Source: Candidatus Heimdallarchaeota archaeon
Lineage (GTDB): Archaea; Asgardarchaeota; Heimdallarchaeia; Heimdallarchaeales; Heimdallarchaeaceae
Direction: 5' to 3'
Length of the DNA stretch: 11,789 nt
Assembly: GCA_019057375.1 (NCBI GenBank)
Contig: DXJF01000055.1
Span: forward strand, 1 to 11,789
This document shows positions 1 to 11,789 of this stretch, one piece after another (within the stretch, counting starts at the first letter, position 1; the number at the start of each line of letters is the position of its first letter). Below the pieces are notes generated by a model. That model ran no database searches. It saw only the letters and a list, made by a program, of their open reading frames with translations, and had not been told where the DNA came from. A program made the position numbers and the translations under genes.

Positions 1-60
1 TATAATCTAGAAGTTGATGAAGATAATTCTTATCTCGTTAATCGTGTTGCCGTTCATAAC
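1..60 (+). mobile_element. Intein C-terminal splicing region (blocks F and G); C-extein starts at Cys codon 61-63
   Basis: Translation [20 protein letters not shown]|C matches the intein block F (YxLxV...xY/F) and block G (N..vHN followed by C/S/T) pattern. It replaces the GIGPGSI expected before the IMPDH/GMPR catalytic Cys. Confidence 0.93.
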
Positions 61-591
61 TGCATCACCAGAATTGTTACTGGTAGTGGTGTTCCTCAAT
101 TAACTGCTATTATGGATTGTGCCAAAGTAGCTAAAGACTATGGTATCCCAATTATTGCTGATGGCGGTGTACGCAATTCAGGAGATCTTACAAAAGCTAT
201 CGCAGCAGGAGCTTCCACTGTCATGATTGGAGGTCTTTTTGCTGGAACAGAAGAGAGTCCCGGAATAACCATTTTACGCTCTGGAAGAAGCTATAAAGTC
301 GTTCGAGGAATGGCTAGTTTGGGAGCTACTTTAGGAAGAGAAGCCAGAGAGAAAAAAGGCTCTTTCGATGAGCTAGACATGGGGAGTGTAGTTCCTGAAG
401 GAGTAGAAGCTGTAGTACCTTATCGAGGATCTGCAGCTGATGTTCTTGAACAACTTGTTGGAGGACTAAGAAGTGGAATCTCCTACTGTGGTGCAACTAA
501 TCTTAAAGAGATGCAAAGTAATGCAGAATTTATCAAAATAACTGCTGCTGGACGTTCTGAGTCAGCTTCACATGATGTTGAGCGTATGTAA
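1..591 (+). CDS. guaB: IMP dehydrogenase / GMP reductase family protein, 5'-truncated by the window edge, intein-containing; may be a GMP reductase
   Basis: Frame 1 is open from base 1, upstream of the ORF-track Met at 112. After the intein end it reads [20 protein letters not shown], then [50 protein letters not shown]. These are hallmark IMPDH/GMPR motifs. Stop TAA at 589-591. Confidence 0.95.
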
Positions 592-620
592 ATAGATTTT
601 CTACTCAAACATGGACAAAA

Positions 621-632
621 GAAGTTAAATAA
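621..632 (+). promoter_or_regulatory. Putative BRE/TATA promoter for the Nudix-MBL gene
   Basis: Purine-rich run then TTAAATA at 625-631, about 28 nt before ATG 659. Confidence 0.45.
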
Positions 633-658
633 TGATTAGTCCCCCCTTACCTTGACAG

Positions 659-2173
659 ATGTCTGAGTATAGAACAATAGCTATTCTTGTTTTTAGAATC
701 TTTAGAGGCAAATATCATTTTTATCTCGTTAGAAGAGCTATAAACGTACCAGCTGTGCCTTCCACATGGACACCTATTGGCTCTGTAATCACTGCTCAAG
801 ATTTTAGGGTTGCTGAGGAACTAGAGAAGAAGTATGGTGATATTTCAGATAATATGGCAGACAAAGTAACAGTATTAAGACTTCTTTTAGAAAGGGATTT
901 AATTCATGATACAGAATTGCAAAGTTCTGTACCTCTGTTTACAGAAGTTCGACAAAAAATCTTGAAAATGGATCCTGCTTATGTAACTACTTTCTTCAGT
1001 TCAATGATTCCTTGGGGAAGACAAAAAGCATATCTTAATGAAGATATCCTAGATTGTTACTACTACCTTTATATTGTTCCAACATCTTCAATTTTCAGAA
1101 AAGGAAAATTATCCCAGTATTCAGAATATATAAGTTCGAGTGATATAGTTTTGGAAGAAAGAAGCTGGTGGTTCAAATCAAGTAAACTTGTAAAAAAATA
1201 TAACAAGATTGAAGGTCTTTTCGATCCAATTGTTATGACTTTCATTTCTAAATTATACCATGAAAAGAAGAAAATTGTAGATGTTGCTAGAGAGTTGGAT
1301 AAAGAAACTATTGATACACAAATTATCAAATTAGGTTTGCTTCCGAAAATATTGAAGTTTGAGACTCCAGCTCCTACTCGAACTCCTTTTGATCTATGTA
1401 ATATCTATGTTGTTGGTAACGAACGACAATATATTATTGATCCTGGTTCAACTACTTCCAAAGCTATTACAGTTCTTGAAAAATATATTGAAGAGAATTT
1501 GGATAAAATTGATGGTATTCTTTTAACTAGTCATTTAGTTGATCATTGTAACCAAGCTCTCCAACTTAAGGAAAAATATGATATCCCATTATATGCTTCT
1601 GAAGAAACAGCAAAAGAATTAGTAGATGAGGGATTTGTTTTTAATTCGCATCTAAAGAAAGGAATGAAAATCTTTCTGGGAACATATGAACCTCTTGGAA
1701 TTAGAAAATGGGAACTTGAAGTTGTGGAACTTCCAGGATATACAAAAGGTCATTTGGGTTATTATGATCCCCGAGGAGTTTTGTTTTCAGGAAGTCTTCT
1801 TCATAAAGGAATTGTCAGTTCTATTGGTTCTTACGATAATGCTTATTCTGATTTCATTAGCAGCTTAAAGAAAATATCAAAATATAACTTAAAATACGCT
1901 CTTTCTGGTCATAGAGATATTATTTCAGATGTGAAACAAGCTATTAATTTTAATCTGAAGAATCTTAAAATGAATGAAGGATTCATCATACGCTTGTTAA
2001 AGGAAGGAAAATCAACTTTAGATGAACTTATTAACGCAGTTTTGAGAAATTCTGATTTAGAATGGAGAGATAGTGCAGTTAATATTGTACTTACTATTCT
2101 ATCAAAATTGACAAAGGAAAGTAAAATTAAAAAACGCGGTGAGGACTACTTTTGTGTAAATAGCACTAATTAG
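659..2173 (+). CDS. Nudix-like / metallo-beta-lactamase (LACTB2-like) / winged-helix fusion protein with degenerate catalytic motifs
   Basis: N-terminal YLVRR...WTPIGSV...D...LRLLLER resembles the NUDT19-type Nudix fold. The C-terminal half has MBL landmarks IIDPG, ILLTSHLVDH, PGYTKGH, FSGSLL and SGH. The final ~65 aa resemble the LACTB2-type WH domain. Confidence 0.8.
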   Translation: MSEYRTIAILVFRIFRGKYHFYLVRRAINVPAVPSTWTPIGSVITAQDFRVAEELEKKYGDISDNMADKVTVLRLLLERDLIHDTELQSSVPLFTEVRQKILKMDPAYVTTFFSSMIPWGRQKAYLNEDILDCYYYLYIVPTSSIFRKGKLSQYSEYISSSDIVLEERSWWFKSSKLVKKYNKIEGLFDPIVMTFISKLYHEKKKIVDVARELDKETIDTQIIKLGLLPKILKFETPAPTRTPFDLCNIYVVGNERQYIIDPGSTTSKAITVLEKYIEENLDKIDGILLTSHLVDHCNQALQLKEKYDIPLYASEETAKELVDEGFVFNSHLKKGMKIFLGTYEPLGIRKWELEVVELPGYTKGHLGYYDPRGVLFSGSLLHKGIVSSIGSYDNAYSDFISSLKKISKYNLKYALSGHRDIISDVKQAINFNLKNLKMNEGFIIRLLKEGKSTLDELINAVLRNSDLEWRDSAVNIVLTILSKLTKESKIKKRGEDYFCVNSTN

Positions 2174-2185
2174 TCATACTATCAC

Positions 2186-2199
2186 CAAAACTTATATTT
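2186..2199 (+). promoter_or_regulatory. BRE/TATA promoter for the rdhA-like gene (probably leaderless)
   Basis: CAAAACTTATATTT, with the TATA at 2192-2199 about 23-30 nt before ATG 2219/2222. Confidence 0.6.
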
Positions 2200-2218
2200 A
2201 TTCTAAATTTCCATTTGC

Positions 2219-3670
2219 ATGATGAGCCTTCAGATAGTTGTTGAAATCTGCAATCCTAATGATTGTCAGCATGAATGTGTATCAGTTTGTCCCCAAAACA
2301 AAAAAGGAAAAATTGCAATCAAAGTTGAAAAAACAATAGTTGAAATAAATAAAAGTAATTGTATAAATTGTTTGCAATGTGTCTATGCTTGTCCTTTTGA
2401 TGCCATAGAAGTTGTCTTGAAAAACAAGAATAAAATTACTAAGGAAACTCTACAATCTAAAGAGAAAGAAAGACAAAGAAAAAAAGATAAGAAATTGTTT
2501 GAGATAAATGAAGATGTTTATGAACCTTTCAATGAAAAATATACTATTTTCAGTCGTAGAATGTGGGATGAGGAGTATGAAGGATTTAAGAAACCTATTT
2601 TTGGAAAAGCAAAAGAACGCATTGAAATGGGTTTAGATGGCTACTCTGAAATTGAATTAGCTGCAGTCGATGCTGCATGGTCAGTTGAAAATCTTGTAAG
2701 TATGCATGAATTTCAGAAGGAAAGACCAAAAACATTGGATGAAGAAAACAAGAAGAAACTTGAAGAACAGAAGGTAAAAATCAAACTTAAACAAGTCAAT
2801 TATGATGTTCAAGAACCACAGCAGTACAAAGTTGAAGATCCAGAAGAGATGTCCAAATGGTTGAAGAAGGTTTCCAAATTCTATGGAGCGAATCTGATAG
2901 GTGTAGCAAAGTATGATCCAAAGTGGATTTACACTCACGATAGAATGGATAGACCTTATGTAATTCCTGAAAAAATAAAATATGTCGTAGTTTTAGTAGT
3001 TGAAATGGATCTAGATGCGATTAAAACAACTCCAAAAATGCCTGGCGGTATAGCCACAGGACTTGGGTATTCTAAAATAGCTTTTGTAAGAACACTAGTA
3101 TCAAGCTTTATCAAGAATTTAGGTTATGAAGCAATCCCTGCTGGAAATGCTCTAGGCTTGTCTGTTCCAGTGGCTGTTGAAGCAGGACTTGGAGGATATG
3201 GTCGTCATGGTCTGTTGATAACAAAGGAATATGGTCCTAGAGTAAGAGTTGCAAAAATATTAACTGATATGCCACTAGTAACTGACAAACCTAGTTATCG
3301 TTTTGCTAAATCTGTTGAACGTTTCTGTGAAACCTGTATGACCTGTGCTGAGAAATGTCCAAGTGCATCAATTTCCTTTGATAAAAAACCATCCTACAAA
3401 ACATATAGTATAAGCAATAATCCTGGAGTGAAGAAATGGTATGTTAATGTTGACACTTGTTATATGTTTTGGATAGAAAATGGCGGAGATTGTAGCGTGT
3501 GTATATCTGATTGTGAATATAATCACAAGCCAACCTGGCCTCATAAAGTAGCTAATTGGATTGTTATGAATTTGCCAATTTTCAATCCTATATGGCCTTA
3601 TGTTGGAAAATTATTAGGCTATGGAGGAAATAAATCAGCTAAGAAATTCTGGAAGAAGATTAATGTCTAG
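2219..3670 (+). CDS. rdhA: Reductive dehalogenase-like cobalamin/[4Fe-4S] protein with an N-terminal ABCE1/RLI-type ferredoxin domain
   Basis: Core motifs: KKVSKFYGANLIGVA, GYS, LGYEAIP, PVAVEAGLGGYGRHGLLITKEYGPRVRVAKILTDMPL, CETCMTCAEKCP and C-x10-CSVCISDC, ending in a LLGYG tail. The N-terminus carries Cx4Cx3Cx3CP and Cx2Cx2Cx3CP. No TAT (RRxFLK) signal. Start is ATG 2219 or 2222. Confidence 0.88.
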   Translation: MMSLQIVVEICNPNDCQHECVSVCPQNKKGKIAIKVEKTIVEINKSNCINCLQCVYACPFDAIEVVLKNKNKITKETLQSKEKERQRKKDKKLFEINEDVYEPFNEKYTIFSRRMWDEEYEGFKKPIFGKAKERIEMGLDGYSEIELAAVDAAWSVENLVSMHEFQKERPKTLDEENKKKLEEQKVKIKLKQVNYDVQEPQQYKVEDPEEMSKWLKKVSKFYGANLIGVAKYDPKWIYTHDRMDRPYVIPEKIKYVVVLVVEMDLDAIKTTPKMPGGIATGLGYSKIAFVRTLVSSFIKNLGYEAIPAGNALGLSVPVAVEAGLGGYGRHGLLITKEYGPRVRVAKILTDMPLVTDKPSYRFAKSVERFCETCMTCAEKCPSASISFDKKPSYKTYSISNNPGVKKWYVNVDTCYMFWIENGGDCSVCISDCEYNHKPTWPHKVANWIVMNLPIFNPIWPYVGKLLGYGGNKSAKKFWKKINV

Positions 3671-3680
3671 CTTCTTTCCT

Positions 3681-4535
3681 TTAACCAAAGAAATCAGCTA
3701 GTTTCTGTTGACCTTTGAATGTAGTTTTTTTAGGTTCAAGAGGAATAAGATTTTTTTCTGCAAGTAGATCTTTGAATTTTCTTGCTGCTGGAGGTGCATA
3801 TCCAGAAAAATGGTTGTTAATGAAAACATATCCTGTGCTTTTGTTAGTATTTTTTGAGTAAGCATCAGCCAGTTGACCTACTGTCTTTTCCATCAATTCT
3901 GTTTGATCCTTTAACTCCTTACCAAGACCAATCGTTTGCTTATGTGAACCTATTATTCTTAGATAGAAATAATCTTTTTTTACTTCCTCAAAAAGATTGA
4001 ATTTAATATATGGTAAAAATGAACTGACAATTCCTATATTTTTCTCATTAAGTAGATTATATGTATCATCGTTATACCAGCTGTTATGTCGAAATTCTAT
4101 GACTAGTTGATAGTCGGAATGTGGGAAAAATGAAATGAAATCATAGATTTGTTCTCTTGTTGAAGCGTTCTTTTCAAAACTAGGTTTTAGTTGCATAACA
4201 AGAGGGCCAAGTTTCTTTTTCAAAGGATTCATGATGAGTAGAAACGATTTGAGATTCTGCTCAACAACTGATAGATTATCAGCTTGGCAAATCGATTTGG
4301 GGATTTTTGCAGTTAGTACAAAATCATCAGGTAGAGATTTGTTCCATCTAGCTGTTGTTTCTAATTTTGGAAATGCATAGAAGGTAGAATTAATCTCACA
4401 AGTTGTAAATTGAGTAGAATAAAACTCCAAGAGAGCATATTTGTCTATCTTCGCAGGATAAAAACCTCCAAGATTGGATTTCCAGTCTTCATAGTTAAAA
4501 CCAGTACATCCTACATGTATTTTTATATCTTGCAT
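3681..4535 (-). CDS. DUF72 (YecE-like TIM-barrel) protein with C-terminal PIP box
   Basis: IHVGCTGFNYEDW, GFYP, CEINSTFY, FVLTAKIP, IEFRHNSW, YLRIIG and FINNH are DUF72 landmarks. ATG 4535 is preferred over TTG 4544 given the promoter position. Confidence 0.9.
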   Translation of the reverse strand: MQDIKIHVGCTGFNYEDWKSNLGGFYPAKIDKYALLEFYSTQFTTCEINSTFYAFPKLETTARWNKSLPDDFVLTAKIPKSICQADNLSVVEQNLKSFLLIMNPLKKKLGPLVMQLKPSFEKNASTREQIYDFISFFPHSDYQLVIEFRHNSWYNDDTYNLLNEKNIGIVSSFLPYIKFNLFEEVKKDYFYLRIIGSHKQTIGLGKELKDQTELMEKTVGQLADAYSKNTNKSTGYVFINNHFSGYAPPAARKFKDLLAEKNLIPLEPKKTTFKGQQKLADFFG

Positions 4536-4563
4536 CTTACTCAACTTTTCACGACTTTTTTAA

Positions 4564-4575
4564 CTATAAAAGTTT
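4564..4575 (-). promoter_or_regulatory. BRE/TATA promoter for the DUF72 gene
   Basis: Minus strand reads AAACTTTTATAG, with the TATA about 29-36 nt upstream of ATG 4535. Confidence 0.55.
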
Positions 4576-4661
4576 GATATTTCCATCTTCAAAAGTTTTT
4601 CCAAAATCTATTGCGGATAGAACTATTAGAATCTATTTAAAAGATGTTTCACATGTAAAAA

Positions 4662-4750
4662 TGCCGATAGGCACCCCTTGCCCTAGAGGATGCATGAGTG
4701 ACCAGCGCCGAGTAAAAAACTGGCACTCGAATTTCCTCTCTTGGTCTAGG
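4662..4750 (+). ncRNA. Candidate structured small RNA of unknown family (strand uncertain)
   Basis: 48 of 89 nt are G/C (54%) inside an AT-rich spacer. Pairings: TGCC-GATA-GGCA hairpin (4662-4673); AGAGGA 4685-4690 with TCCTCT 4734-4739; GAGTG(A)CCAG 4696-4705 with CTGGCACTC 4720-4728. TTTAAAA lies at 4636-4642 upstream and TTTT at 4757-4760 downstream. No family match was recognised. Confidence 0.4.
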
Positions 4751-4810
4751 ATTCACTTTTATAATGTTAAATAAATGTAATTCGAGGATATTTTTAATCT
4801 GGTTTCAAGC

Positions 4811-4823
4811 AAAACTTTTAGTA
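4811..4823 (+). promoter_or_regulatory. BRE/TATA promoter for the MFS gene (leaderless start at ATG 4848)
   Basis: AAAACTTTTAGTA, 25-32 nt before ATG 4848. Same AAAACTT(T/A)TA motif as at other genes. An alternative TTTTATAA lies at 4757-4764. Confidence 0.5.
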
Positions 4824-4847
4824 GAACGTACTAAACTCATAATATTC

Positions 4848-6227
4848 ATGCCTGATTCTGATTCTTCAATAGATTTACTTGAACCAATTCCATTAGGTGT
4901 ATCTATAGAGGATTCAGATTATGAAATTGAAAGAGCTGAAGAAATTGCTCTTTACTCTCGTTCAATCGCTACTAATGTATCCAATGGTCTAGTAAGTCCA
5001 TTTGTCTCGTTTATTTCATTAAATTTAGGTGCATCAGCTGGAATTTTGGGTTGGATTCAAGCAATAGCTAACCTTCTAAGACAATTTTTGGATCCTTTTT
5101 TTGGACGACTTTCAGATATGGTTAGAAGAAGAATTCCCTTTATAGTTATTTCAACTATAACTTGGATTATTCCTTACGTTTTTCTTTATTGGGTTAAGGC
5201 TCCTGAATTCGTTATTCTCATTGTAGCACTTGTTAACATCTTGTTAAGTTTAGGTAATCCTGCTTGGAATGCTTTACAGAATGAACTTTTTCCAAAAGAG
5301 GTTAGAGGTAAACTTACTGGTAGGGTTTTCTGGTTTGGATCATTTGGCAGTATGATTGCTACACTTTTTACTGGAGTAATTCTTACCTTTGCTTTTGGAG
5401 AAAACATCGAATATCAAAAGTATATCCTCATTCCAGTTGGTATAGGAGTTTTGATTTCCATTATAGCTGTGCTTCCTTTCAGAAAGATAGAAGAACCACT
5501 AAGAAGGGAAGGAGTGCAATTTGAAAAAATTGATGGAAATTTGAAAGATGGAATCAAAGAGATTTTTAGGAATAAACCTTTCAGAAAATTTATGCTTCTT
5601 TATTCAATCTTTGGTCTGTTTTGGACTTTTTCTTGGCCATTATTTAGTCTTAAACAGATTAATGTTTTGAATGCATCAGCAGTACAAGTCGCTTTGCTTG
5701 AAATCATCTTTGCAGTTACAACAATATTGTTTATTATGTTGGGAGCTAAGATAGCAGATAAGTTTGGAAGAACAAAACTCATTCTGATTAATCGTATGAT
5801 TTTGTTTCTCTTCCCTCTTGGATATATTTTTGCTTCTAAAATCTGGCATCTTTATTTGGTACACTTCTTTATTGCAAGTATATTCAATCTAAGTTTTGCT
5901 GGAGTGAATGCATATATTTTAGATATAATCCCTAGAAAAAATAGTGGGTTATATTTTGGTGTTCTGGGTTTGGTTACAGGAGTATTCTACTTTATAGGAA
6001 CCCTACTAGGAGGATATTTAGTCCAAGTACTACAAAATTGGTATTCACAAGAAGTTTCTCTTACTATAGCTCTTGCTTTTGTTACTATAATGAGATTCAT
6101 ATTAGGATTCATGTTCCTCTCATTGAAGGAAGTGAAGAAATTTTCTTCATCTTACAGAGAATTACCACATTATGCTTTATCGAGTTTTGTAAATTTAGTG
6201 AGAAAACCATTTCGAGGAAAGAAGTAA
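4848..6227 (+). CDS. Major facilitator superfamily transporter
   Basis: About 12 hydrophobic segments. MFS motif A variants GRLSDMVRRR and AKIADKFGRTK, plus ELFPKEVRGKLTG. ATG 4848 (MPDSD) is chosen over ATG 4764 because the extension is promoter-like DNA. Confidence 0.92.
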   Translation: MPDSDSSIDLLEPIPLGVSIEDSDYEIERAEEIALYSRSIATNVSNGLVSPFVSFISLNLGASAGILGWIQAIANLLRQFLDPFFGRLSDMVRRRIPFIVISTITWIIPYVFLYWVKAPEFVILIVALVNILLSLGNPAWNALQNELFPKEVRGKLTGRVFWFGSFGSMIATLFTGVILTFAFGENIEYQKYILIPVGIGVLISIIAVLPFRKIEEPLRREGVQFEKIDGNLKDGIKEIFRNKPFRKFMLLYSIFGLFWTFSWPLFSLKQINVLNASAVQVALLEIIFAVTTILFIMLGAKIADKFGRTKLILINRMILFLFPLGYIFASKIWHLYLVHFFIASIFNLSFAGVNAYILDIIPRKNSGLYFGVLGLVTGVFYFIGTLLGGYLVQVLQNWYSQEVSLTIALAFVTIMRFILGFMFLSLKEVKKFSSSYRELPHYALSSFVNLVRKPFRGKK

Positions 6228-6272
6228 TAATTTTCAAATTTCAGATTTAAGTTGCGTGTTGATTGAGTTCAA

Positions 6273-6310
6273 TTTATAAACGTAAGAACTTCTTTGCTCA
6301 TGAAGGTGGA
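6273..6310 (+). promoter_or_regulatory. TATA box (TTTATAAA 6273-6280) and SD-like GGTGGA (6305-6310) for lat
   Basis: Canonical archaeal TATA and SD spacing before ATG 6319. Confidence 0.6.
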
Positions 6311-6318
6311 TATTGAAA

Positions 6319-7623
6319 ATGGATGCTATAGAAAAAATAGGAAAACACATGCTTGTAGACGGTTATCCTTTAGTACTTGATTTGAAGAAAAGTCATGGAT
6401 GCAGATTAGTTGATAAAAAGAATGATAAAACCTTTCTTGATTTCTTTTCATTCTTTGCTTCATCACCTGTTGGAATGAATCATCCAGCAATGATGGAAAA
6501 GGATTTTCTAGATAATTTAGCAGAAGTTGCAGTAAATAAACCCAGTTGTTCAGATATCTATACTGATGAAATGGGTGATTTTGTGGAAACCTTTAGTAGA
6601 GTAGGAATTCCAAACGACTTGCCAAATCTTTTCTTAATCTCAGGTGGTGCTTTAGCTGTAGAGAATGCTCTAAAAACTGCTTTTGACTACAAAGTACGAA
6701 AGAACTTTTCTAAAGGTTTTGAAGATGAAGTAGGAAGTCAAGTAATCCATTTTGAACAATCTTTCCATGGAAGATCTGGATATACTTTAAGCTTAACAAA
6801 TACTTTTGATCCCAAGAAAACAAAGTACTTCCCTAAATTCCAATGGCCTAGAATTTCTAGTCCTAAAGTAACTTTCCCAATTGAAGATAATTTTGAGCAA
6901 ATTGTTATAGCTGAAGAGAAGAGTTGTCAGGAAATACATGATACTATCGAAAAATATGGTGATGATATCGCTTGTATGATAATTGAGCCTATACAAGCTG
7001 AAGGTGGAGATAATCATCTCCGTCCACAATTCTTCCAAAAACTTAGACAAATGGCAGATAATCATGACATACTATTAATCTATGATGAAATCCAAACTGG
7101 CGTTGGAATGACAGGAAAATTCTGGGCATATGAACACTTTGGAGATGCAAAACCAGATATTCTCTGTTTTGGAAAAAAAATGCAAGTGTGTGGAATATTA
7201 GCATCTGATAAAATTAAAGAGGTTGAAAATAATGTCTTTGAAGAAAGTAGTAGAATTAACTCTACATGGGGAGGAAATCTAACAGATATCTTCAGAGTAA
7301 CAAAATATCTTGAAATCATCGAGAAGGAGAATCTAGTTGGTAATGCTGCTAAAATGGGCGAGTATATGTTAAAGCAAGTAAAAGAACTCCAAGTTGATTT
7401 TCCAGAGAAAATATCCAATTGTAGAGGAAGAGGATTGTTCACTGCATTTGATTTAGAATCTACTGAAAAACGTGATCAATTCAACAAAGATTGTTATGCT
7501 AAAGAACTCCTTTTACTTGGTTGTGGAGAAAAAACTATCCGTTTCAGACCTTATCTCAATGTTACATCAAAGGAAATTGATGAATGTATGAGCATTCTGA
7601 GAGATGTTATGAAAAACCTTTAA
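6319..7623 (+). CDS. lat: L-lysine 6-aminotransferase (class III PLP aminotransferase)
   Basis: HMLVDG..VLDL..S.G, FLDFFSFFASSPVGMNHP, SGGALAVENALKTAFD, FHGRSGYTLSLTNT, EPIQAEGGD, DEIQTG, FGKK (PLP lysine) and STWGG match the LAT subfamily. Start is ATG 6319 or TTG 6313. Confidence 0.88.
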   Translation: MDAIEKIGKHMLVDGYPLVLDLKKSHGCRLVDKKNDKTFLDFFSFFASSPVGMNHPAMMEKDFLDNLAEVAVNKPSCSDIYTDEMGDFVETFSRVGIPNDLPNLFLISGGALAVENALKTAFDYKVRKNFSKGFEDEVGSQVIHFEQSFHGRSGYTLSLTNTFDPKKTKYFPKFQWPRISSPKVTFPIEDNFEQIVIAEEKSCQEIHDTIEKYGDDIACMIIEPIQAEGGDNHLRPQFFQKLRQMADNHDILLIYDEIQTGVGMTGKFWAYEHFGDAKPDILCFGKKMQVCGILASDKIKEVENNVFEESSRINSTWGGNLTDIFRVTKYLEIIEKENLVGNAAKMGEYMLKQVKELQVDFPEKISNCRGRGLFTAFDLESTEKRDQFNKDCYAKELLLLGCGEKTIRFRPYLNVTSKEIDECMSILRDVMKNL

Positions 7624-7668
7624 TTTCTCTTCCTTTTCTTTCTATGTTCGTTGTTTTGTGGTTTTTTT
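7624..7668 (+). terminator. U-rich archaeal-type terminator after lat
   Basis: Pyrimidine/T-rich tract directly after the stop, ending in T7 at 7662-7668. Confidence 0.45.
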
Positions 7669-7681
7669 GGGCACTGATACT

Positions 7682-7721
7682 AAAACTTATATGTTCAAAT
7701 CCAAAAAAGAGGGCAAGGTGA
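7682..7721 (+). promoter_or_regulatory. BRE/TATA (AAAACTTATAT 7682-7692) and SD GGTGA (7717-7721) for the formiminotransferase operon
   Basis: Same promoter motif as before rdhA. GGTGA ends 4 nt before ATG 7726. Confidence 0.65.
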
Positions 7722-7725
7722 AAAT

Positions 7726-8646
7726 ATGCCTCTGGTTGAATGTGTACCAAATTTCAGCGAAGGAAGAAATCAAGAGATTGTCGACCAAATCGTTGATGCC
7801 ATCCAAAAGGGTGGAAAAATCATTATGTTAGATATCAGAATGGATCCTGATCATAATAGAGCCGTTATTTCATTTATTGGTGAACCTGAAGAATGTGTTA
7901 ATGCTGCATTTGCAGGATGCAAGAAGGCTACTGAGTTAATAGATATGAATGAGCATAAAGGAGAACACAATAGATTTGGTTCTACAGATGTTATCCCCTT
8001 AATTCCAGTCACTGATATAACTCTAGAAGAATGTGCCGAACTAGCTCAAAAACTAGGAGAAAAAATTGCTAAAGAACTGAAAATACCTGTTTATTTCTAT
8101 GGAGCCGCTGCAAAAGATCCAGCAAGAGAAGTACTTCAGGATTATAGAACAAAATCATTTCAATATGAGCAGCTGAAAGAAGAAATAGCTACAAATGATG
8201 ACTACATTCCAGATGTTGGAGCTAAAAAGACACATCCCAAAGCTGGAGCAGTAAATATTGGAGCTAGAAACTTCTTAGTTGCTTACAATATCTATCTAGA
8301 TACCGATGACATGGAAGTTGCTAAGAAAATAGCTAGAAATATTCGTCATTCTGGTGGAGGATTAAGATATATCCAAGCTGGAGCAATGAATATTGAGGAA
8401 CGTGGAGTCGTACAAGTCAGTATGAATATAACCGATTTCAAAGGTACTCCTTTACATAGGGTGTTAGAAATGGTGAAGACAGAAGCAAAAAGATTCGGTG
8501 TTAATGTTACTGAATCAGAAGTTTACGGAATGCTTCCTCTTGATGCTCTTTTAGAAGCTGCGGAATTCTACTTACGATTAAACAATTTTGATAGAGATCA
8601 AATAATCGAAAAAAGAGTTTTTTCAAAAGGTGAGAAAAATGGGTGA
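7726..8646 (+). CDS. ftcd: Glutamate formimidoyltransferase (FTCD N-terminal half)
   Basis: LVECVPNFSEGR, DPDHNR, GEHNRFGSTDVIPLIP, GARNFLVAYNI and VQVSMNITDF are formiminotransferase signatures. Confidence 0.95.
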   Translation: MPLVECVPNFSEGRNQEIVDQIVDAIQKGGKIIMLDIRMDPDHNRAVISFIGEPEECVNAAFAGCKKATELIDMNEHKGEHNRFGSTDVIPLIPVTDITLEECAELAQKLGEKIAKELKIPVYFYGAAAKDPAREVLQDYRTKSFQYEQLKEEIATNDDYIPDVGAKKTHPKAGAVNIGARNFLVAYNIYLDTDDMEVAKKIARNIRHSGGGLRYIQAGAMNIEERGVVQVSMNITDFKGTPLHRVLEMVKTEAKRFGVNVTESEVYGMLPLDALLEAAEFYLRLNNFDRDQIIEKRVFSKGEKNG

Positions 8647-9277
8647 AATACTAATAGATAAAGTAGTAACAGATTTTTTGGATGAACTAGCTAGTGATGC
8701 ACCTGCACCTGGTGGTGGTGCTGCAGCTTGTATTGCAGGAGCCATGGGTGCGGCATTAGGTAGCATGGTTGCTAGACTTACAATAGGTAAGGAAGACTAT
8801 AAAGATGTTGAAAAATTTTTCAAGAAAAAATTGAAAAGAACTGAAGAGCTTCGCATTAAACTTACTGAGTTAACAGATAAGGATGCCAATGCTTTTAGTG
8901 GTGTAATTAAAGCATTTGGAATGCCTAAAGATACAGAAGAAGAGAAAGCAGCTCGTTCAGCGAAAATCTTAGCAGAGTACAAAGTAGCTGCAGAAGTACC
9001 TTTAGACACATGTATAGCCTGCAAGGAAGTAATTGATCTTCATTTAGAAATGGGAACTAAAGGCAATAAGCAAGCCCTTTCCGATATTGCAGTAGGTGCT
9101 CTCTGTGCTCTAACTGGTCTCAAGTCAGCAATGCATAATGTGGAAATTAATCTCGGTTGGATAAAAAACAAAGATGCTGAATATGCAAAAAAAATGTTTT
9201 CGCAGCTTGAAAAATTAGTTGAAGGCGTTGAAGAAAAAGTCAATATATTAGATGAAGAGATAAGAGCAACATTCTAA
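8639..9277 (+). CDS. Formiminotetrahydrofolate cyclodeaminase / methenyl-THF cyclohydrolase family protein (FTCD C-terminal half)
   Basis: DFLDELASDAPAPGGGAAA, MVARLTIGK, DANAF, VPL, GNKQALSD and NVEINL. ATG 8639 overlaps the upstream TGA and has GGTGA at 8629-8633. Confidence 0.93.
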   Translation: MGEILIDKVVTDFLDELASDAPAPGGGAAACIAGAMGAALGSMVARLTIGKEDYKDVEKFFKKKLKRTEELRIKLTELTDKDANAFSGVIKAFGMPKDTEEEKAARSAKILAEYKVAAEVPLDTCIACKEVIDLHLEMGTKGNKQALSDIAVGALCALTGLKSAMHNVEINLGWIKNKDAEYAKKMFSQLEKLVEGVEEKVNILDEEIRATF

Positions 9278-9296
9278 ATTCTTTTCCTTCTTTCTT

Positions 9297-9809
9297 TCAA
9301 TACTCGAAAGGTATATCATGTATTTCTATACCTGTTTTCCATTTTTTACTTTCTTTTTCTTTTAAATTCATAAATAGTTCAATATGTCCAAGTATGTTAA
9401 ATCCCATTTCATAGAATAATTTCATAGCTTTTTTATTTCTCGCTACAGGTCTTATGGACAGATATTTTATCTCCTTCTTGCTTGCGTGGTTGATAATGAA
9501 TCGTAATAATTTCTTCCCTATACCCTTTTTTCGATAAGCTGAGCTTATTATGATGGGTTCCACCTCTGCTTCCTTTCCTCTAACAATTAACCCAACCAAT
9601 CCAACTATCATCTTATCTACTACTGCTACCCAAATATTTTCTTCACCATATTTTTCTAAATGTTCGTTGAATGCTTGACCTGGATTCTCACCTCCAATAG
9701 AAGGATTATCATAAATTTCTTGATGATATTCAGTTAGTTCAATCCACATTTTCTGACAAAGTTCATTATCAGATACTTTGTAATTTCGAATCTTTACATC
9801 TTCTGACAT
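9297..9809 (-). CDS. GNAT family N-acetyltransferase
   Basis: Acetyl-CoA binding motif A (IIISSAYRKKGIGKKLL) and motif B (NKKAMKLFYEMGF). Confidence 0.9.
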   Translation of the reverse strand: MSEDVKIRNYKVSDNELCQKMWIELTEYHQEIYDNPSIGGENPGQAFNEHLEKYGEENIWVAVVDKMIVGLVGLIVRGKEAEVEPIIISSAYRKKGIGKKLLRFIINHASKKEIKYLSIRPVARNKKAMKLFYEMGFNILGHIELFMNLKEKESKKWKTGIEIHDIPFEY

Positions 9810-9918
9810 TTCCTTTCAAAAGAGATATTTTTAATATGTAATTAAAATTTGCGTCAAAGAAGTATCAACAGGATTATATGATTCTTATGTCTATCTAAAC
9901 CTCTTGTAAAACTAAATC

Positions 9919-9926
9919 TTTTATAA
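9919..9926 (+). promoter_or_regulatory. TATA box for the hypothetical gene at 9952
   Basis: TTTTATAA, 26-33 nt before ATG 9952. Confidence 0.5.
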
Positions 9927-9951
9927 TCAAATATCTGAGATAGAGTTGAAT

Positions 9952-10512
9952 ATGACAGGCCAATTACCCGATTCTTTTCTTTATGAGGATGAAGTCTATT
10001 CCCTTATTAGTATAGCTGATGAAGAACCTTTTACACCTTTAGATTATGATATTATACCACAAATGGCTTCAACAGCTTGTTGGAGAGGATTTGTTTTATA
10101 TTACAAATTAGATAATAATTCTCTGATTCTTCAGGATATGCAGCTTAATACCAAAGAAGCTAAGGAAATTAACAATATTAAACCTACAAAGACTAAAGAT
10201 ATGTTCAGATTTCACTACCAAGACTTGAACCTAAAACTAGATTATTCTGGTAAGTTATTGATTGCTCGTGACTTCATTGATGAGATGTATGTACATATGG
10301 GTTTTCAGAGACCTATTGCCTTTAGAAAAGTAGTTGAATTGGATTTCAAGAATGGTGAGCTTCTTTCAGTGAATGATTTGTCAGAACAAATGGAAAATAG
10401 AAGAAATAAGGCTCCTGCTGACGGTGCTAGACCTAAAACTATGAAAGACAAAGATGTGAAAAATTGGATAAAAGACACTTTTTCTCGAAAACACAACAAA
10501 GAAGAAAAATAA
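9952..10512 (+). CDS. Conserved hypothetical protein with STACWRG motif
   Basis: 187-aa ORF with host-like codon usage. MTGQLPD...STACWRGF resembles a widespread uncharacterised family (recognised from memory). TTG 9946 is an alternative start. Confidence 0.8.
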   Translation: MTGQLPDSFLYEDEVYSLISIADEEPFTPLDYDIIPQMASTACWRGFVLYYKLDNNSLILQDMQLNTKEAKEINNIKPTKTKDMFRFHYQDLNLKLDYSGKLLIARDFIDEMYVHMGFQRPIAFRKVVELDFKNGELLSVNDLSEQMENRRNKAPADGARPKTMKDKDVKNWIKDTFSRKHNKEEK

Positions 10513-10565
10513 GTTTTAAGCTGTTTCGATGATTTAAAATATGCATTTCTAATTGATTGATTGTC

Positions 10566-11108
10566 ATGGATATCTTTACTGATCTGGGAAAAAATTTGGA
10601 ATCTATAGATCTATCAATAGAAGCTCCTTTGAATTTCAGATTAGCTGCAGTTTTGGTACCTATTTTTACAAAGGGTCAGAAAATACTTTTCACTAAAAGA
10701 ACAGAAAACTTGACTCATCATCAAGGGCAAATATCTTTTCCTGGAGGAAGATATGACGATTTAGATGGGAATTTAGTAGAGACCGCTCTCAGAGAAACTA
10801 AAGAAGAAGTTGGAATAAAGAGAAGATCTATTCATGTTTTAGGTAGCCTTAATCCACTATTTTCAACGAGTATGCATTATGTTTATCCTTTAGTGGCCTT
10901 CATCGATGAAGATGTAGAATTAATAATTAATCCTGAAGAAGTGCAAGAAACTTTCTTTGCAGATATTCAGCAATTATTCCTCCCTGAAAATCATCTTTCT
11001 GGAACATTCAATAATCAAGAATATATGTACTATAATGTTGGAAAATATAAAATTTGGGGATTAACTCATCTTATACTTACTGATTTACATAGTAGATTGA
11101 AGAAATAG
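10566..11108 (+). CDS. Nudix CoA pyrophosphatase (NudL/PCD1/NUDT7 type)
   Basis: AAVLVP, the UPF0035-type motif LFTKRTENLTHHQGQISFPGG, an intact Nudix box ETALRETKEEVGI, and C-terminal IWGLT. Confidence 0.92.
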   Translation: MDIFTDLGKNLESIDLSIEAPLNFRLAAVLVPIFTKGQKILFTKRTENLTHHQGQISFPGGRYDDLDGNLVETALRETKEEVGIKRRSIHVLGSLNPLFSTSMHYVYPLVAFIDEDVELIINPEEVQETFFADIQQLFLPENHLSGTFNNQEYMYYNVGKYKIWGLTHLILTDLHSRLKK

Positions 11109-11110
11109 TA

Positions 11111-11581
11111 TCAGTCTTTATCCTGTTTCTCCATTTCTTCTATTATTTCATCAGCAATGGTTTTTGCCAGTTCATCAGCCAGTTCTTCATCAAGTATTTC
11201 TTCACCTTCAGCCTCCTCCTCCTCTGATTCAGGCATAATTAATACAGGAATACGTTGATCTTTGAGAAAATATTCAAAGGCTTCTGGTTGTGCCATAGCA
11301 TCCATCATATTACCTACTAACTCATTATAAGCTTCTTCTAGATTTATTATTGCATCTTGCATCTCTTGCCAAGGATAATATTCACTCTTGTTTGTATAAA
11401 AATGCTCAACCATTTCTTCTGGATCGAAAAATTGTTTTTCAACTTTATATCTTAAATTAGAGAGATGAGCAATGTTTGAGCGATATTTGTCCAGCATTTG
11501 ACCGCATTTTTGCATATATTGATTGAAAGATATCTCTTCCATATGTTCTAGAATTAATTCTAACATATAACTTATTCGCAA
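11111..11581 (-). CDS. Hypothetical acidic protein
   Basis: 156-aa ORF with a D/E-rich C-terminus. TTG 11581 follows a GTGAG, and ATG 11566 is an alternative start. No family recognised. Confidence 0.75.
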   Translation of the reverse strand: MRISYMLELILEHMEEISFNQYMQKCGQMLDKYRSNIAHLSNLRYKVEKQFFDPEEMVEHFYTNKSEYYPWQEMQDAIINLEEAYNELVGNMMDAMAQPEAFEYFLKDQRIPVLIMPESEEEEAEGEEILDEELADELAKTIADEIIEEMEKQDKD

Positions 11582-11730
11582 AATAGCTCACTTGATACCT
11601 CGAAGATACTGAATAAGTAAATTTCTTAAAGGGATAAGTTTCATTTGCAAAAACTTTAGAAGTCATATCTTTAACAGCTGCTGACACATACGTTATCAAA
11701 AGAAAACCAAAAAAATAGATTAGTGATATT

Positions 11731-11789
11731 ATGAGTTTTTCTAAGAAGAAAAAATACGTGAAGTATCAGCTGAATTACAAACAAAAACA
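11731..11789 (+). CDS. Possible N-terminus of a gene running off the window (MSFSKKKKYVKYQLNYKQK)
   Basis: ATG at 11731 preceded by GTGA, and the frame is open to the edge. Too short to verify. Confidence 0.3.
   Translation, partial: MSFSKKKKYVKYQLNYKQK

Follow-up and report, generated by a model that had tools for sequence, protein, structure and literature searches.

What kind of iron-sulfur (FeS) domain precedes the reductive dehalogenase homologue (RdhA) of a Candidatus Heimdallarchaeota archaeon, and what might it contribute to the enzyme behind it? Both questions are raised by a DNA stretch of 11,789 nucleotides (GenBank assembly GCA_019057375.1, contig DXJF01000055.1, positions 1 to 11,789 of the forward strand), which is called the window here and is contig C155 of a metagenome-assembled genome of 3.47 Mb and 89% completeness. 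An earlier note, made from the letters of the window, had read one open reading frame (ORF) as a fusion: at the N-terminus, in place of a twin-arginine translocation (TAT) signal, an FeS domain of the type known from the ribosome-recycling ATPase ABCE1 (also RLI or Rli1), and behind it an RdhA core. Here, we weigh this reading by profile, structure and tree comparisons. The protein is probably a cytoplasmic corrinoid/FeS RdhA homologue of an Asgard clade, whose 67-residue N-terminal domain (N-domain) with two predicted [4Fe-4S] clusters has its nearest relative in ABCE1 and would serve as an electron wire.

Relationship of the N-domain to the FeS domain of ABCE1

The peptide quoted in the earlier note for positions 2219-2416 of the plus strand is present as written and forms residues 1-66 of the ORF. 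Its cysteine signature could likewise be read in the translation: Cx4Cx3Cx3CP with a proline at +2 (Pro13 after C11) at C11-C24, followed by Cx2Cx2Cx3CPFxAI at C48-C58. The spacing of the RLI type (Cx4Cx3-4Cx3CP, then Cx2Cx2Cx3CP) is found at C11/16/20/24-P25 and C48/51/54/58-P59. Human ABCE1 has the same spacing at C16/C21/C25/C29 and C55/C58/C61/C65 (PMC13255074), and the first motif of the genuine ABCE1 of the same genome, located on contig C21, is also spaced Cx4Cx3Cx3CP. Since the eight cysteines are invariant across an alignment of 64 homologous N-domains, the pattern is not due to chance.

Profile comparisons in both directions point to the same family. Among the NCBIfam models, RLI (NF009945) matched residues 1-100 best with 46.4 bits, followed by DsrO with 37; the cut-off of 469 bits was not reached, the match being confined to model positions 9-72 without the twin ABC nucleotide-binding domains. 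A six-frame search of the genome with the N-terminal part of the RLI model placed the RdhA N-domain first among all non-ABCE1 matches (43.8 bits, the next at 30). In the reverse direction, a profile built from the 64 N-domains gave 41.6 bits for the ABCE1 of the same genome over the full domain and at most 25.9 bits, mostly from half-domain matches, for the other ferredoxin domains of this genome. On extracted segments, the same profile scored 107 archaeal ABCE1 N-domains from Asgard archaea, Bathyarchaeia, Thermoproteota, Thermococci and methanogens at 40.6-71.0 bits, and 31 dicluster domains of the own genome at 12-31 bits. Throughout 61 Asgard genomes the order was RdhA orthologues, then the ABCE1 of nearly every genome (42-68 bits), then small ferredoxins (up to 38 bits), and above about 42 bits only RdhA, ABCE1 and one HdrA-MvhD fusion from a single genus were found. 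Profile-profile alignment of the RdhA N-domain and ABCE1 families by hhalign gave 99.2% with an E-value of 1.8e-19 over 64 ungapped columns. The alignment also revealed two features common to both families and lacking in the other ferredoxins of the genome: the widened first motif Cx4Cx3Cx3C and an insertion after the first CP, which reads CP(V/Q)N(K/R)(K/R)(G/N) in the RdhA N-domains and CPxVRxG in ABCE1. A language-model search, which counts as a lead only, put Fer4_RLI clusters first (0.89).

The predicted fold agrees with the profiles. The AlphaFold2 (AF2) model of the N-domain has a predicted local distance difference test score (pLDDT) of 95.8, and a Foldseek search with it returned ABCE1 chains at the top 11 positions, with query-normalised template-modelling scores (TMq) of 0.86-0.92 and root-mean-square deviations (rmsd) of 1.2-1.5. 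When the Foldseek hits were realigned by VIA-align, ABCE1 chains took the top 12 positions (Z 10.8-12.6), every one of the 67 residues being aligned. From other families, the leading chain reached Z 10.8 with 63 residues aligned.

Several results weigh against a special kinship with ABCE1. The Pfam model of its FeS domain, PF04068 (Fer4_RLI, cut-off 23 bits), has no match in the 483-aa protein even at E<=10, and the generic models Fer4 (37.4 bits), Fer4_10 (32.5) and Fer4_7 (27.6) match residues 1-100 above their cut-offs. The comparison of residues 1-66 with PF04068 and generic Fer4 models, which the earlier note had suggested as a check, thus turned out in favour of the generic models for this protein. 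When a single ABCE1 N-domain serves as query, a PorD-type ferredoxin (31.3 bits) scores at least as high as the RdhA N-domain (about 31 bits); the separation of ABCE1 from other families stems from the profiles. The structural margin is modest as well (Z 12.6 versus 10.8 for other 2[4Fe-4S] domains), and the HdrA-MvhD fusion also shows the spacing Cx4Cx3Cx3CP, so that this motif is not exclusive to ABCE1. Finally, VIA-align over 48,161 representative chains listed no ABCE1 and gave Z 9-10.7 for FwdG-, Fsr- and clostridial-type ferredoxins; this absence was not used, as VIA-align of the Foldseek hits did put ABCE1 first.

Taken to their end, these points would make the N-domain a generic ferredoxin, its likeness to ABCE1 being convergence or chance within the 2[4Fe-4S] superfamily. 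Such an explanation is very unlikely in our view. It can call on the Pfam result and on a fold common to all dicluster ferredoxins, for which many families reach Z 8-10.8, but against it stand the 10-40 bits that consistently separate ABCE1 from the other domains of the own genome in both search directions, the insertions and deletions common to both families, and the superposition of all 67 residues in the ABCE1 family only. PF04068 itself speaks less clearly across the homologues: at E<=10 it matches 24 of the 64 N-domains (best E-value 2e-8), and its cut-off is passed by five of ten relatives tested (P0081 33.8, P0098 30.9, P0067 30.4, P0066 26.0 and P0059 23.4 bits). The model spans just the first 35 residues, and in the Heimdallarchaeaceae branch the N-terminal strand is shortened and diverged. 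A whole-library profile search with the N-domain alignment, in which polyferredoxins made up nearly all of the top 150 and which could be cited in favour of a generic ferredoxin, was dropped for ranking, because HMMER sums many repeated half-domain matches in such proteins.

Altogether, the preference of the earlier note for an ABCE1/RLI type over an ordinary ferredoxin is largely supported by profiles in both directions, motif spacing, insertion, hhalign and predicted fold, in all of which ABCE1/Rli1 appears as the nearest of the families compared; it did not hold for PF04068, which this copy fails.

Origin of the N-domain

Kinship with ABCE1 does not by itself tell which of the two families lent the domain. 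A tree of 69 columns was calculated; it is unrooted, and polarity is unreadable from such a tree. ABCE1 forms a clade of its own in it (SH-aLRT, the Shimodaira-Hasegawa-like approximate likelihood ratio test, 96), without RdhA N-domains. A tree constrained to join RdhA N-domains and ABCE1 against 28 other domains surpassed the free quick tree by 72 log-likelihood units (p of the approximately unbiased test 0.977). By this gain and the separate ABCE1 clade, the N-domain appears to lie beside the ABCE1 clade and not inside it. The poor resolution, with 10 of 125 branches starred, counts against relying on this tree. The tree check proposed in the earlier note therefore had a divided outcome, the N-domain falling outside the ABCE1 clade and the tree that joins the two being better than the free one.

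Further comparisons bear on the age of the relationship. With the RdhA N-domain profile, ABCE1 from non-Asgard archaea (median 58.8 bits) scored about as high as Asgard ABCE1 with eight cysteines (median 60.3 bits). Moreover, most Asgard ABCE1, including the copy of this genome, have lost one cysteine of the second motif that is kept in the RdhA N-domain. These two results, the position outside the ABCE1 clade and the spacing of the HdrA-MvhD fusion speak against the N-domain being a recent copy of the ABCE1 domain resident in the genome. It may either have been recruited from ABCE1 long ago, or go back, like the ABCE1 domain, to an older redox module. Recruitment from a translation factor, as the earlier note had it, is accordingly one unproven possibility, to which the missing nesting within ABCE1 and the equal scores of non-Asgard ABCE1 lend no help.

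The second reading can be sharpened to the proposal that the RdhA N-domain and the ABCE1 FeS domain belong to an old, wider RLI-type subfamily of archaeal ferredoxins, so that nothing was taken from a translation factor and ABCE1 rather borrowed a redox module. We regard this as possible, if on the doubtful side. The separate clade, the equal scores and the lost cysteine all fit it, and so does the HdrA-MvhD fusion of two Asgard genomes, which scores 45 bits with the RdhA N-domain profile. Yet its domain lacks the insertion after CP that RdhA N-domains and ABCE1 have in common and occurs in one genus only, no further carrier above 42 bits appeared in the 61 genomes, and the unrooted tree is silent on polarity. 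The fusion itself is a protein of 789 aa encoded at L055:706-3075 (G002:C28) and also on G014:C220; its internal ferredoxin domain carries Cx4Cx3Cx3CP (VTVDHEKCDPNECGYACIRECP) and reaches 17.3 bits with PF04068, which is under the cut-off.

The survey of ABCE1 cysteines, covering L001:1501-3363 (the own ABCE1 on contig C21), L023-L052 and L056-L135, yielded some observations on ABCE1 itself. The second cysteine of Cx2Cx2Cx3CP is missing in 35 of 50 Asgard ABCE1 N-domains, where the sequence is CxG..xCxxxCP (the copy of this genome has CSGVAICVKKCPFHC), whereas all of the 57 ABCE1 examined from other archaeal phyla have it; two of the 35 variants instead keep four cysteines with inserted spacing. 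The variant with seven cysteines thus appears to be lineage-wide in Asgard archaea. Some copies from Heimdall and Thor groups have an extra cysteine right after CPF. In addition, some Asgard genomes contain two ABCE1-like ORFs, each with an FeS and two ABC domains (L137:1204-3072 in G019:C130; also G062 and G065), which suggests ABCE1 paralogues. The ABCE1 proteins of the genome studied here and of 'Candidatus Heimdallarchaeota archaeon AB_125' share 91% identity.

The core, its location and its supply of electrons

Behind the N-domain, the earlier note had placed a Lys/Glu-rich linker at about 2420-2500, which is seen at residues 68-96 with 12 K/R and 5 E/D and an AF2 pLDDT of only 56-74. The core that follows scores 214.6 bits with TIGR02486 (cut-off 160.35), and no other sequence of the genome passes the RdhA cut-off. 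In phmmer searches against the PDB, the best solved relative is 8q4h_A, the RdhA of a menaquinol:organohalide oxidoreductase complex (205.7 bits, 1.1e-59), followed by PceA (4uqu_A, 175.5 bits, 1.6e-50); NpRdhA is more distant (65 bits), and QueG is marginal at just 1e-5. Foldseek with the AF2 model of the protein gave the same ranking (8q4h_A with E 4.7e-30, PceA about 1e-24, NpRdhA about 4e-18). In the phmmer alignment to 4uqu_A, Y284, N310 and R343 occupy the positions of Y246, N272 and R305 of PceA, and all three are invariant in 58 Asgard homologues. By sequence and model, the core is a reductive dehalogenase homologue with the PceA fold, two [4Fe-4S] motifs and the Tyr/Asn/Arg set of PceA, for which corrinoid binding and dehalogenation are predicted. 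The coordinates of all features are compiled in Table 1.

Table 1. Positions of the rdhA gene and its parts in the window
Feature	Position	Strand	Basis
TATA-like box TTATATTTA, 19-27 nt before the rdhA start codon ATG, within the 45 nt that separate rdhA from the preceding gene	2192..2200	+	sequence only
Whole ORF, 483 aa and stop: N-terminal FeS domain, linker, RdhA core	2219..3670	+	AF2 mean pLDDT 90.2; TIGR02486 match
Putative ABCE1/RLI-type 2x[4Fe-4S] domain, residues 1-67	2219..2419	+	profile, fold and hhalign comparisons
First Cys motif C11-N-P-N-D-C16-Q-H-E-C20-V-S-V-C24-P25 (Cx4Cx3Cx3CP)	2249..2293	+	translation
Second Cys motif C48-x2-C51-x2-C54-x3-C58-P-F-D-A-I63	2360..2407	+	translation; PF00037 match at residues 41-64
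Lys/Glu-rich linker, residues 68-96; helix 75-89 predicted with low confidence	2420..2506	+	composition, AF2
Predicted corrinoid/FeS reductive dehalogenase core, residues 97-483	2507..3667	+	TIGR02486, Foldseek, phmmer
Y284, position of PceA Tyr246; invariant in 58 homologues	3068..3070	+	alignment
N310, position of PceA Asn272; invariant	3146..3148	+	alignment
R343, position of PceA Arg305; invariant	3245..3247	+	alignment
Core cluster motif C370x2C373x2C376x3C380P	3326..3361	+	translation; invariant in 58 homologues
Core cluster motif C414x10C425x2C428x3C432	3458..3514	+	translation; invariant in 58 homologues

A corrinoid-dependent reductase need not act on organohalides, and the core could reduce another substrate, as QueG does with epoxyqueuosine. 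This explanation appears unlikely. In its favour, the match to PF13486 is weak (19.3 bits, under the cut-off of 24.3), the genes conserved around it belong to amino-acid and one-carbon metabolism (FTCD, aminotransferase, and an aromatic ammonia-lyase in locus L022) rather than to halo-organic pathways, and to our knowledge no Asgard RdhA has been assayed so far. On the other hand, the TIGR02486 cut-off is passed, the catalytic Tyr/Asn/Arg residues of PceA are invariant, and QueG is a far weaker match.

The ORF contains 16 cysteines, eight in the N-domain (11, 16, 20, 24, 48, 51, 54, 58) and eight in the core (370, 373, 376, 380, 414, 425, 428, 432), a number that the earlier note had counted correctly and that would suffice for four [4Fe-4S] clusters. 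Together, N-domain and core should therewith hold four such clusters and a corrinoid. In human ABCE1 the ligands are C16/C21/C25/C65 for one cluster and C29/C55/C58/C61 for the other (PMC13255074); by homology, the sets in the N-domain should be C11/C16/C20/C58 and C24/C48/C51/C54.

A route of electrons can be proposed on this basis. A soluble donor of low potential, such as a ferredoxin or a partner oxidoreductase, would reduce the clusters of the N-domain at the protein surface, and these would pass the electrons to the two core clusters and then to the corrinoid, which would remove a halide from the substrate reductively. By way of the N-domain, the path of the electrons would thereby reach from the distal core cluster out to the surface. 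Cluster loading, the contact between N-domain and core, the donor and the substrate are inferred; that cluster binding, electron transfer, corrinoid binding and dehalogenation are for this protein all predictions from sequence counts against the scheme. A predicted complex of the N-domain and the core with four 4Fe-4S clusters scored 0.00, below the mark, and carries no weight either way on docking.

The enzyme most likely resides in the cytoplasm, because no TAT signal, transmembrane (TM) helix or neighbour matching a membrane-anchor family was seen. The N-terminus is the FeS domain itself, with no RR motif and no hydrophobic h-region, and neither a TM helix nor a signal peptide is evident in the protein, the highest 19-residue Kyte-Doolittle mean being 1.38. 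No neighbour in the window or in the loci of six relatives matches a membrane-anchor family; the genome-wide absence of rdhB was not tested. This bears out the statement of the earlier note that the FeS domain replaces the TAT signal.

An alternative is a respiratory, quinone-linked enzyme, the N-domain of which docks on a membrane complex and not on a soluble donor. The closest solved structure is indeed the RdhA of a menaquinol-fed complex, and Han et al. (2025; PMC12219181) assigned five Heimdall proteins, in which the N-terminal ferredoxin domain is complete, to a quinone-dependent clade, a placement that also counts against a soluble supply of electrons. Even so, we judge the alternative decidedly unlikely, in view of the missing TAT signal, TM helix and anchor-family neighbour; four FeS clusters in a protein without export signal moreover imply that it is assembled and resides in the cytoplasm.

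The neighbourhood gives no clue to donor or substrate of the proposed cytoplasmic enzyme. From 659 to 9277 of the window, the genes are IMPDH (with an intein), a Nudix/MBL-fold protein, RdhA, DUF72 (minus strand), a class-III aminotransferase, FTCD_N/FTCD and FTCD_C, an order kept in Heimdallarchaeaceae (L015, L017) down to 56% RdhA identity. A gene for a transporter of the major facilitator superfamily (MFS) lies at 4764-6227, a slot empty of MFS in these two relatives. Synteny of IMPDH, Nudix/MBL, RdhA, DUF72, aminotransferase, FTCD and NUDIX is restricted to Heimdallarchaeaceae; Thor and Odin groups show a partial synteny of deacetylase, RdhA and PAS kinase. No conserved redox or membrane partner is common to the neighbourhoods of the window and the loci of six relatives.

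Single loci deviate from this picture. In one Thorarchaeota genome (L019:2548-5837), RdhA is divergent and lies beside MtrH, a RACo-type reductive activator of corrinoid proteins and a B12-binding protein, possibly a corrinoid-handling neighbourhood; the arrangement was not seen in the other loci. In a Heimdall-group relative (L022:4327-5858), the gene immediately upstream of rdhA encodes an aromatic amino-acid ammonia-lyase (PF00221), and in the window the FTCD genes of histidine catabolism lie downstream of rdhA; such neighbours may indicate a link to amino-acid-derived substrates.

The TATA box of archaea is usually located at about -26. The TATA-like box upstream of rdhA (Table 1) suggests a promoter of its own and a leaderless or short-leader mRNA.

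Distribution, meaning and comparison with known systems

RdhA homologues are present in 125 of 201 Asgard genomes sampled, and of the 116 database homologues with a length of 340 aa or more, 89 have the complete N-domain with eight cysteines. Heimdallarchaeaceae provide the closest named homologues, and identities of 37-94% were found to proteins whose names refer to Heimdall-, Thor-, Loki-, Odin-, Hod-, Kari- and Hermodarchaeota. Mapped on a quick tree of the core with 110 rows, the presence of the N-domain requires 15 state changes, in which shortened gene calls are indistinguishable from real losses.

The fusion has moreover been published. Manoharan et al. (2019; PMC6737245) described reductive dehalogenases without TAT signal and RdhB in Loki- and Thorarchaeota and, for Thorarchaeota, an extra N-terminal 4Fe-4S domain, and RdhA-like proteins of Heimdallarchaeia with complete N-terminal 4Fe-4S ferredoxin domains were reported in 2025 (PMC12219181). 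The earlier note, which knew of no description of the fusion and would have given up this novelty for a common and documented architecture, is therefore refuted on this point, since the architecture is common in Asgard archaea and on record as an extra ferredoxin domain. The only new point appears to be the kinship of the N-domain with ABCE1: a link of the RdhA N-domain to ABCE1, or a paper on ABCE1 in Asgard archaea, was not found in the searchable literature, in which subscription journals are not covered.

The purpose of the two [4Fe-4S] clusters in ABCE1 is still under debate. That its FeS domain has a specific sister in an electron-transfer module of a corrinoid reductase across Asgard archaea is nearly an even call for us, tipped slightly towards doubt. 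If true, clusters of the ABCE1 type can work as redox wires, or could at one time, and the domain passed in one direction or the other, from a redox enzyme to ABCE1 as its wedge or from ABCE1 to a redox enzyme. The Asgard RdhA would then be a natural system in which the potentials and the reactivity of an ABCE1-type domain can be studied off the ribosome. For research on ABCE1, this means a close relative of its FeS domain in a setting where redox function is measurable. For the Asgard RdhA, the assignment provides a structural template for the cluster ligands of the N-domain and a well-delimited module for deletions or mutations. In practical terms its weight is moderate, as the fusion has been published before and the functional claims are all inferred.

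Compared with known systems, the published Asgard RdhAs (PMC6737245, PMC12219181) have the same architecture, with an N-terminal dicluster domain and an RdhA core, without TAT signal and RdhB, and belong to the same clade; there the domain is named pfam00037 or 4Fe-4S ferredoxin domain, and kinship with ABCE1 is not mentioned. The respiratory RdhAs, such as PceA of Sulfurospirillum multivorans (4uqu) and the RdhA-RdhB complex 8q4h, have the core fold, the two [4Fe-4S] motifs and the Tyr/Asn/Arg residues in common with the Asgard protein. In contrast to it, they carry a TAT leader, are exported and are fed by menaquinol through RdhB, and the Asgard protein would possess two more clusters. NpRdhA (4ras, 6zy1) is a catabolic, self-sufficient, cytoplasmic enzyme without TAT signal, in which an electron-input module is likewise fused to the catalytic core. 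However, its core is more distant, and its module is C-terminal, a flavin/[2Fe-2S] reductase driven by NADPH, whereas that of the Asgard protein is N-terminal, has no flavin or NAD(P)H site and would hold two [4Fe-4S] clusters.

The FeS domain of ABCE1/Rli1 (PF04068 and PF00037; PDB 3bk7, 6tmf, 6zce, 7o80) resembles the RdhA N-domain in the signature Cx4Cx3Cx3CP...Cx2Cx2Cx3CPFxAI, the N-terminal strand and the insertion after CP, with 33-37% identity and 67 of 67 residues superposed at an rmsd of 1.2-1.6. In both proteins the domain occupies the extreme N-terminus; in ABCE1 it precedes twin ABC ATPase domains, and in the Asgard protein a predicted corrinoid reductase. On the ribosome, the FeS domain of ABCE1 works as a mechanical wedge (PMC13255074), whereas the N-domain of the Asgard RdhA would transfer electrons.

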